Shown one piece after another: positions 58,130 through 58,977 of a stretch of 64,000 nt of DNA. This stretch comes from Saprospira grandis (lineage in GTDB: Bacteria; Bacteroidota; Bacteroidia; Chitinophagales; Saprospiraceae), in the NCBI RefSeq assembly GCF_027594745.1, contig NZ_CP110854.1, positions 1,372,241 to 1,436,240 on the forward strand, in the 5' to 3' direction. Numbering within the stretch: the first letter of the stretch is position 1; every line of letters begins with the position of its first letter. Under the pieces are notes generated by a model. That model worked only from the letters and a program-made list of their open reading frames with translations. It was not told the origin of the DNA and did not search any database. A program made the position numbers and the translations under genes.

Positions 58130-58800
58130 GGCCTTTTTCTGTTTTGCAGGAGTACTTTTAGCCATCGAGAGGGGTTCAGCTACCCATCGGGAGGGGTACA
58201 CATACCCCTCTGGAGGACTTTAGCTAGCCATAAGGAGGATTTCACATACCCATCGAGAGGGGTACAGCTAGCCGTCGAGAGGGGTACAGCTAGCCGTCGA
58301 GAGGGGTACACTTACCCGTCTAGAGGGGTTCCTATACCCATCAGGAGGGGTACAGCTACCCATCGAGAGGGGGGCAGCTAGCCCTCCATAGGGCTACTCC
58401 TAATCATCAGGAGCATTTCTGGACCTCCGAGCGAGGACCTCTCCTAGTCCTCTATAGGGCTGCTGTACATTATCTTGAGGGCTAGCGCTAATCCTCCAGA
58501 GCAGTCTTCCTAGTTATCAGGACCATTCTTTTACCTAAAGAGGAGGACTTAGGCTAGTCATCGGCAGGACTTGTACTGCTCCAAAGGAGGACCTATAGAG
58601 GTCCTCTAGAGCAACTAGGCCTATAGTATAGAGGACTTAAGTAAGTCCAAAAGAGGAGCTACAGAAGCCCTATCAAGGACCTCCCCTAGCCCAAGCGAGG
58701 ACTTACTCAAATCCTCTTGATAACCTATACAACCCCAAGAGAGGAGCTCACTAAGTCCTACCGAGGGGGTTCAGTACTCCTCGCCCTTATTTCAGCTAAA
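58130..58800. repeat. Long degenerate tandem-repeat array, ~22-bp unit (AGCCGTCGAGAGGGGTACAGCT-type), ~30 copies
   Basis: The periodicity is directly visible: CATCGAGAGGGGTTCAGCTACC, CATCGGGAGGGGTACACATACC, CGTCGAGAGGGGTACAGCTAGC x2 and so on, decaying into GAGGAC-containing variants up to about 58800. The track ORF at 58127-58381 is an artefact of the repeats. Confidence 0.8.
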
Positions 58801-58977
58801 AGATGGGGGTATTTGCTATTATCGCCTAGGGGCTTGTCCCTAGGCGCAGAAAGGGGAAACACAAAACATTGAACAGTCTCCCTTCTTCCTAATTGGCATA
58901 TATATTTGCTAGCTGCAGTGGGAACTAATCAGCCAAGAGCAGCATTCTAGCTCTCCGAATGAGTAAACCAAAGAATA

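Follow-up and report, generated by a model that had tools for sequence, protein, structure and literature searches.

The 22-bp minisatellite at 58 kb of the window (the whole stretch of 64,000 nucleotides of Saprospira grandis DNA that was analysed) is probably part of a selfish composite element of the BrickBuilt type, the array of which evolves by slippage and unequal exchange. [quoted passage not shown] The conserved module that follows the array is almost certainly an IS256-type MITE end, and in Saprospira such ends are systematically joined to arrays with a 21/22-bp period, in a fixed order and polarity. The puzzling pair of satellites in the window is thus explained as parts of one dispersed element family, the ends of which can be identified as IS256 type. 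The features of both loci are collected in Table 1.

Table 1. Features of the 58-kb and 44.7-kb loci, in window coordinates
Feature	Position	Strand	Remarks
GC-rich REP-like dispersed repeat	57940..58100		Precedes the element; blastn 78-92% to many S. grandis DSM 2844 and window loci
Bidirectional terminator-like hairpin GGTCCAAAACTTAGGTTTTGGGCC	58105..58138		A-run on one side, T-run on the other; leader side of array; from a two-strand terminator scan
22-bp minisatellite	58146..58799	+	29-30 head-to-tail units in one register; spacers absent
Array units 0-9	58162-58381	+	Mutual likeness 70-95%
Array units 10-28	58382-58799	+	Decayed, ~47% identity, phase kept
Module CCTAGGGGCTTGTCCCTAGG CGCAGAAAGGGGAA ACACAAAACATTGAACAGTCTC (about 58 bp)	58825-58880	+	~25 bp past the last recognisable array unit
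Subterminal hairpin of MITE left end, CCTAGGG-GCTTGT-CCCTAGG	58825..58844	+	Conserved among S. grandis MITE copies
14-bp spacer and 22-bp IS256-family terminal inverted repeat (58859-58880)	58845..58880	-	Outer tip at 58880
Complete short MITE, 106 bp	44705..44810	+	Left repeat 44705-44726, hairpin 44742-44759, right repeat 44789-44810
21-bp x4.4 array ACCGAACTAGTTTACCTCCAG	44814..44905	+	Abuts MITE right repeat
Conserved AT-rich leader of the 44.7-kb array	44906..44965	-	Minus-strand reading CCAATTGTTAAGGAGTTGTTAAAAATG...GGGCAAAAGT

The conserved module is an IS256-type MITE end

The 22-mer in the module has three matches in the window, compared with 0.00 expected in shuffles. A scan of ACACAAAANNNTNAACAGTCTC against one genome per species gave 102 stretches, which come from Bacteroidota, Ignavibacteriota, Cyanobacteriota, Campylobacterota, and Proteobacteria. 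In every one of these groups the copies are alike on one flank of the 22-mer, and the likeness stops exactly after ...AACAGTCTC (...GTCTC). A likeness that ends so sharply past the 22-mer is the behaviour of a transposon terminus. The ORFs flanked by the 22-mer in two loci (L031 and L030) belong to Transposase_mut (PF00872; E = 1e-119 and 6e-90), and the same transposase was found by tblastn in 22 loci. In full-length copies, each end has the 22-mer, in inverted orientation, and 8-bp target duplications surround them in five loci (L034, L039, L049, L023, and L067). Taken together, the sharp end of similarity, the Mutator-type transposase neighbours, and the 8-bp duplications identify the module as an IS256-family terminal inverted repeat. 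MITEs with such ends move, leaving 8-bp target duplications.

The Saprospira form is an IS256-type end with an added subterminal hairpin (CCTAGGGGCTTGTCCCTAGG). The MITEs that carry it are either short (106 to 110 bp) or long (~300 bp) and have no transposase gene, and 13 to 14 exact copies of the 22-mer are dispersed in S. grandis DSM 2844. At the 58.8-kb end, the interior of the element points leftwards, towards the array; since no partner repeat was found across the array, this copy is a solo left end. No IS256-type transposase gene was detected by tblastn in the window or in the fetched DSM 2844 loci, which counts against a composite spread by such an enzyme.

In the Campylobacterota loci (L008, L034, L039, L049, and L102), the IS256-family element with the same terminal repeat measures 2.2 to 2.9 kb, and the Arcobacter-type elements have an extra 0.9 to 1.6 kb between the transposase gene and the right end, which suggests a passenger gene. 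Doubled ends were also seen. In an Ignavibacteriaceae locus (L097:6794-6860) the insertion sequence has a right end doubled in tandem, with two 22-mers 45 bp apart, and in L079:2783-2820 and L083:4078-4120 the last 10 to 18 bp of the repeat are doubled in tandem just outside the MITE end, the tips reading GAACAGTCCC GAACAGTCCC and ...AACAGTCTC AAATTTTGAACAGTCCCC. These doubled tips may be footprints of repeated insertion or excision at one site.

MITE ends and tandem arrays are linked in Saprospira

A tandem array with a period of 21, 42, or 84 bp lies near the 22-mer in 10 of the 13 copies in S. grandis DSM 2844 but in only 2 of the 91 copies in all other genomes. Arrays were counted when they had a period of at least 15 and at least 4 copies and lay within 320 bp of an exact 22-mer. 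In the analysis as a whole, the Saprospira sequences compared with the window were one congeneric genome (DSM 2844) and one sister-strain contig. The earlier note had described two different arrays attached to one module of about 60 bp and had named a module without arrays beside it elsewhere in the genome as the observation that would speak against a link. The opposite is seen in DSM 2844, and the difference in adjacency shows that the pairing in the window is no coincidence.

Every 21-, 42-, or 84-bp array reported by Tandem Repeats Finder (TRF) in those DSM 2844 loci adjoins a MITE or a degenerate MITE. Order and polarity are fixed: the AT-rich leader is followed by the array, and the array by either a whole MITE, right repeat first, or the hairpin plus the left repeat, a tail seen at the 58-kb locus of the window and in L009 and L094. 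The leaders form two conserved families (CCCAATTGTTACTAATAAG... and CCAATTGTTAAGGAG...GGGCAAAAGT), both of which begin CC(C)AATTGTTA, and the leader at 58 kb is a shortened, poorly conserved version of these. The start of the leader weakly resembles the terminal repeat, at ~10/21 positions in an alignment by eye. At 58 kb, the leader side of the array has no partner inverted repeat, and this argues against the composite reading.

One copy in DSM 2844, the eleventh, adjoins an array of another kind. In L062:1761-2500, on a scaffold at ~3.617 Mb, the left end of a MITE abuts the truncated terminal repeat of a true CRISPR array that has a 36-bp repeat (GTTTCAATGCTGCTTCGCCTGCAAAGGGTTTAGTAT) and more than 80 units and lies just downstream of a tRNA gene. 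The placement of this MITE end, at the border of the CRISPR array, is exactly that seen at the minisatellites.

The 44.7-kb locus carries a complete MITE

According to the earlier note, the segment that follows the 58-kb array also precedes the array at 44.7 kb. This holds for the 22-mer, because ACACAAAATTCTGAACAGTCTC (44789-44810, plus strand) stands directly ahead of the 21-bp array, but not for the collinearity of the segment: the full collinear copy of the 58.8-kb module sits on the minus strand, at 44705-44759, inverted and as part of a complete MITE. At 44.7 kb, then, an element of 106 bp is bounded by two 22-mers in inverted orientation; it is homologous to positions 1000-1128 of L084. 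The leader of this array is common to L084, L044, L083, and L099, and its unit family is devoid of dyad symmetry. There is no target duplication around the 44.7-kb MITE, and the 58.8-kb copy is a solo end; that neither window copy shows a duplication is a further point against the composite reading.

A third tandem array in the window (28176-28450), with a 41/83-bp period and a unit reading ...GAGCGTTTTTTTTCCAGCGAATGC..., lies upstream of an ORF that starts at 28521. No IS256-type end or hairpin adjoins it, and the array seems to belong to another class of repeat.

Array units differ between loci

What all the arrays have in common is their period (21/22 bp or multiples thereof) and their flanks. 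The units themselves are homogeneous within a locus and different between loci. Comparison of units gave z = 8.5 for L084 and L083, z = 8 for the 44.7-kb array and the 13-copy array of L099, which are of the same unit family, z = 6 to 7 for L009 and L094, and z = 4.1 for L099 and L084. The 58-kb units scored z = 3.4 with those of the orthologous L001 and z = 2.7 with those of L009; between the 58-kb and 44.7-kb arrays of the window, homology is not detectable (z = 0.8). Some unit families recur, namely, L084/L083 (twice)/L044, L009/L076/L094, L066/L079, and window 44.7 kb/L099. Neither the 22-bp terminal repeat nor abutted tips of it resembles the units significantly (z between -1.9 and 2.0), and a derivation from either was rejected.

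Within arrays, identity reaches 92 to 98%, with higher-order periods of 42 and 84 bp. Homogeneity within a locus, difference between loci, and higher-order periods are typical of satellite DNA under concerted evolution. In the composite that we propose, an IS256-type transposase, provided in trans, would have spread the unit of leader, array, and tail as a single piece. Individual arrays would then have diverged alone by slipped-strand mispairing and unequal recombination, giving rise to concerted evolution and to the 42/84-bp repeats. In the 58-kb copy, turnover may persist at the leader end, the older units on the tail side decaying by point mutation.

Insertion beside existing arrays

The locus could be compared with one sister strain, because exact-protein look-ups for other orthologous loci gave short contigs only and the next MscS homologues are at most 68% identical. 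This strain is represented by a JGI metagenome contig (L001) that is 98% identical to the window over 53755-58071. Upstream of MscS, the contig carries the REP element, then a 300-bp MITE, and then 22-bp units of the family found in the window, where the contig ends. The MITE is flanked on both sides by CCCAATAT, a perfect 8-bp duplication (8/8), and is inserted 5 bp from the first array unit. The window is without this MITE and has instead ~80 bp of unrelated sequence that contains the terminator-like hairpin. The array is thus shared between the strains, and the MITE is polymorphic and mobile. In L076, a MITE with a 6/8 duplication lies 21 bp after the array. The duplications in L001 and L076 indicate that at least some junctions arose by insertion beside existing arrays and not by cotransposition. 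On the other hand, TTTTTATG and GTTTTATG (7/8) stand on either side of the whole composite of L094, taken from the start of the leader to the tip of the repeat, and this is the only composite with such a duplication. Together, these duplications partly support both comobilisation and secondary insertion.

These insertions raise the alternative that the arrays are independent host minisatellites or other repeats, that the IS256-type MITE prefers their edges, and that the junctions are secondary; the attraction could come, for example, from DNA structure induced by the repeats or from stalled forks. The L001 MITE, next to an array that the window strain has without the MITE, and the L076 MITE fit this idea, as do the MITE left end that abuts the truncated repeat ending the CRISPR array of L062 and the arrays of L009 and L076, which agree in their leader and tail flanks and differ in where the MITE parts lie. 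Nevertheless, we consider it rather unlikely. The adjacency to arrays is specific to Saprospira (2/91 copies in other genomes), most junctions start the array 0 to 12 bp from the right repeat without a duplication, the polarity is fixed across all composites, and arrays of the same unit family accompany the MITE at several loci.

Strict phase and a palindromic core in the 58-kb array

For 58162-58380, TRF gives a 22-bp period with 10 copies and 74% matches, alongside alternatives of 44 and 66 bp, and when the sequence is written in rows of 22 bases, the periodicity of the array runs on indel-free to ~58799. Identity at lags of 22, 44, and 66 is 0.70 in the left part of the array and 0.46 to 0.52 in the decayed part, compared to ~0.30 at other lags. 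The consensus fits best at shift 0 in 27 of the 29 units, which means that there is no net indel over ~640 bp, and with an extra, weaker unit at 58146 the total comes to ~30. The best copies read CCGTCGAGAGGGGTACAGCTAG (the unit is also written TCCTCnnGAGGA), and the right half drifts into TCCTCnnGAGGAC variants. These results bear out what had been noted before, namely, some 30 copies of a 22-bp unit that decay rightwards, and the units are contiguous throughout, in line with the earlier view of a spacer-less array that is not a CRISPR array. No ORF runs across the array, the period of which (22) is no multiple of 3.

Short-read Logan contigs match the flanks at 100%, but one (L002) ends at 57967 and the next (L003) begins at 58825, so that composite elements of this kind break short-read assemblies. 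As the interior of the array is not covered by these independent contigs, the copy number of identical units, such as the three at 58250-58315, is a lower bound. A metagenome scan with a 16-mer from the array, which is too short a query, returned 120 loci, all 120 of them single chance matches without an array, hairpin, or terminal repeat.

Even the decayed units keep the core TCCTC-NN-GAGGA, with TCCTC in columns 1 to 5 and GAGGA in columns 8 to 12, every two helical turns. Conservation of the columns is strongly nonuniform in the decayed half of the array (P <= 0.0002), the conserved columns make up a 12-bp palindrome, and two axes of dyad symmetry, spaced 11 bp, run through each 22-bp unit (P = 0 in 200 column shuffles). 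Strict phase over 29 units, near-saturated substitutions, and uneven columns are hard to reconcile with purely neutral decay. Neutral decay gives no explanation for strict phasing together with a palindrome conserved in decayed units, and this keeps a protein-binding reading alive, at a low probability.

The surroundings of the array and its possible function

The array is intergenic and lies between divergent genes, MscS on the minus strand and two orphan genes on the plus strand; TerC, a glycosyltransferase, and ThiG are other neighbours. The AT-rich island with two orphan genes that had been pointed out earlier is real: GC is 0.384 for 59001-60000, and neither orphan ORF has a Pfam or NCBIfam match. 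The orphan genes (113 and 210 amino acids) lie at 58978-59982, in a stretch of 38% GC, and the 113-amino-acid protein was found in one other assembly only. A perfect Bacteroidota -7 box (TATATTTG) is present at 58901-58908, 21 bp beyond the tip of the terminal repeat, and faces the orphan genes. In 57850-58980, the TAnnTTTG boxes are this one (plus strand, just outside the terminal repeat) and one at 57889 (minus strand, facing MscS). A search for sigma-70-type promoters gave no site. On the leader side, the terminator-like hairpin (GGnnCAAAACTTAGGTTTTGnnCC) is found both in the window and in L094, and L099 has a variant form of it.

The REP-like repeat that precedes the 58-kb element also lies ahead of the 44.7-kb locus, at 44437-44582. 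GC-rich REP-like repeats (GGGGCCTGCCGCCTTCGGCGGCCGGGC... types) of 80 to 150 bp fill most intergenic regions of the window, where they generate spurious ORFs, and they match many S. grandis DSM 2844 loci at 77 to 97% identity. Further copies are at 60434-60548, 6876-6965, 15125-15223, 20467-20593, 33475-33598, 48886-49014, and many other places. Between the window and S. grandis DSM 2844, only dispersed repeats match (77 to 97%), which shows that the window does not come from that strain, and the repeat families are common to both.

It is conceivable that the array is functional, its units binding a dimeric protein to form a nucleoprotein structure upstream of the divergent promoters of MscS and the orphan genes, or acting as a structured RNA. 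Apart from the palindrome, the dyad axes, and the regular core, this possibility is favoured by the absence of indels over 29 units despite ~47% identity, by the bidirectional terminator-like hairpin at the leader side, and by the fold of the array, which is better than that of shuffles (z = -5.0 on the plus strand and -7.4 on the minus strand), although such scores are expected of a near-palindromic repeat. BrickBuilt segments, moreover, have promoter activity in E. coli reporters (PMC4596501). We nevertheless regard a functional phased array as improbable. There is no candidate binding protein and no rep or par gene nearby, the units of the other arrays are unrelated in sequence, the 44.7-kb family being without dyad symmetry, and the flanks of the orthologous arrays are wholly different between strains that are 98% identical. 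The TAnnTTTG box is absent from the array, leader, and MITE at the 58-kb locus and six other loci. Rfam gave no relevant match, either for the whole window at the gathering score or for the region at E <= 10; two tRNAs are all it found in the window, and the best subthreshold match in the region scored 25.9 bits against a cut-off of 45. Only about half of the units retain the per-unit hairpin.

This per-unit RNA or DNA hairpin (8 bp plus a tetraloop, scored as kept when at least 5 pairs remained) was rejected as a candidate structure, and so was the apparent covariation GGGG..CCCC to GGAC..GTCC, for which one ancestral change that was later amplified can account. No positive evidence of a cellular function for the array was found.

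It is quite improbable that the palindromic units are bound by a host protein or a transposase-derived protein and that the resulting nucleoprotein array docks IS256-type MITE ends at the edges of arrays. If so, satellite and transposon would be a coadapted system and not an accident of slippage, and the CRISPR edge of L062 would be included.

The earlier note had suggested an iteron-like, origin, or partition function. A spacing of 22 bp is the classic spacing of iterons in origins of the R6K and pPS10 type, and the array is long and phased at exactly this distance. Still, it is extremely improbable that the locus is a plasmid-type set of iterons, an origin, a partition site, or a degenerate CRISPR array. 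The array sits among housekeeping genes of the chromosome, without rep, par, or cas genes nearby (Pfam on 10 neighbouring proteins), there is no GC skew switch at the locus, and spacers, which a CRISPR array would have, are absent. A related chromosome has over 10 such arrays at scattered positions. With no rep or par gene, a dispersed family at many loci, and a module that is the end of a transposon, the suggestion is effectively refuted.

Comparison with known systems

Plasmid iterons of 22 bp and centromere repeats of the sopC/parC type resemble the Saprospira array: they, too, are phased direct repeats, spaced at about two helical turns, and each unit has a palindromic core. Unlike these, the Saprospira arrays are without a cognate rep or par gene, chromosomal, present at many loci, and locus specific in sequence. 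Ordinary IS256-family insertion sequences and MITEs share with the Saprospira elements the 22-bp repeat (GAGACTGTTnAnnnTTTTGTGT), the 8-bp target duplications, Transposase_mut in full-length copies, and derivatives that lack the transposase. Their copies in other phyla, however, are not linked to arrays (2/91), and the 58.8-kb copy is a solo end.

Small dispersed nonautonomous elements with a repeat middle of variable number have been described in other bacteria. The pneumococcal BOX element has a variable number of boxB units, and MITE464/PgRS of Porphyromonas gingivalis has internal repeats of 41 nucleotides; both differ from the Saprospira elements in unit length and ends. In eukaryotes, satellites derived from MITEs or from Foldback/Mutator elements (e.g., Tm1) reportedly join Mutator-superfamily ends to tandem repeats that undergo concerted evolution. 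These satellites are eukaryotic and their arrays are much larger, and we take the likeness as a lead only.

The closest likeness is with BrickBuilt of P. gingivalis, in which a spacer-less minisatellite of 23-nucleotide units lies inside a MITE with a distinct leader and a tail with IS5-like terminal inverted repeats, present in 19 intergenic copies (Klein et al. 2015; PMC4596501). [quoted passage not shown] Both elements come from Bacteroidota and consist of tandem, spacer-less units of 21 to 23 nucleotides set between a distinct conserved leader and a distinct conserved tail. In both, the tail bears a terminal inverted repeat of the insertion sequence type, and each genome has some dozen or more intergenic copies. 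They also share conserved and variable positions within the unit, predicted stem-loops, nearby terminator hairpins, and breaks in short-read assemblies. There are also differences. The ends are of the IS256 family (Mutator type) in Saprospira and of the IS5 family (ISPg) in BrickBuilt, and the units vary by locus in Saprospira, whereas BrickBuilt has one consensus. The Saprospira tail is often a whole MITE of 110 to 300 bp, there are higher-order periods of 42 and 84 bp, and the repeat at the leader end is a weak match only (~10/21 by eye). As homology between the array units and the BrickBuilt 23-mer (AGAYCATARTATCCTCTCRTRTG) is not detectable (z <= 2.3), the Saprospira element is an analogue and not a member of the BrickBuilt family proper.

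Variable repeat numbers and the presence or absence of the MITE could serve as strain markers. A small question is also raised by the 21/22-bp period, which is kept over unrelated units, and by the palindromic core, namely, what fixes the length of the unit. A BrickBuilt-like architecture with IS256 ends, no common sequence, and locus-specific units points to an independent MITE-minisatellite composite. Such composites, which have been described mainly in Porphyromonas, thus exist independently in Saprospiraceae with the ends of another insertion sequence family.
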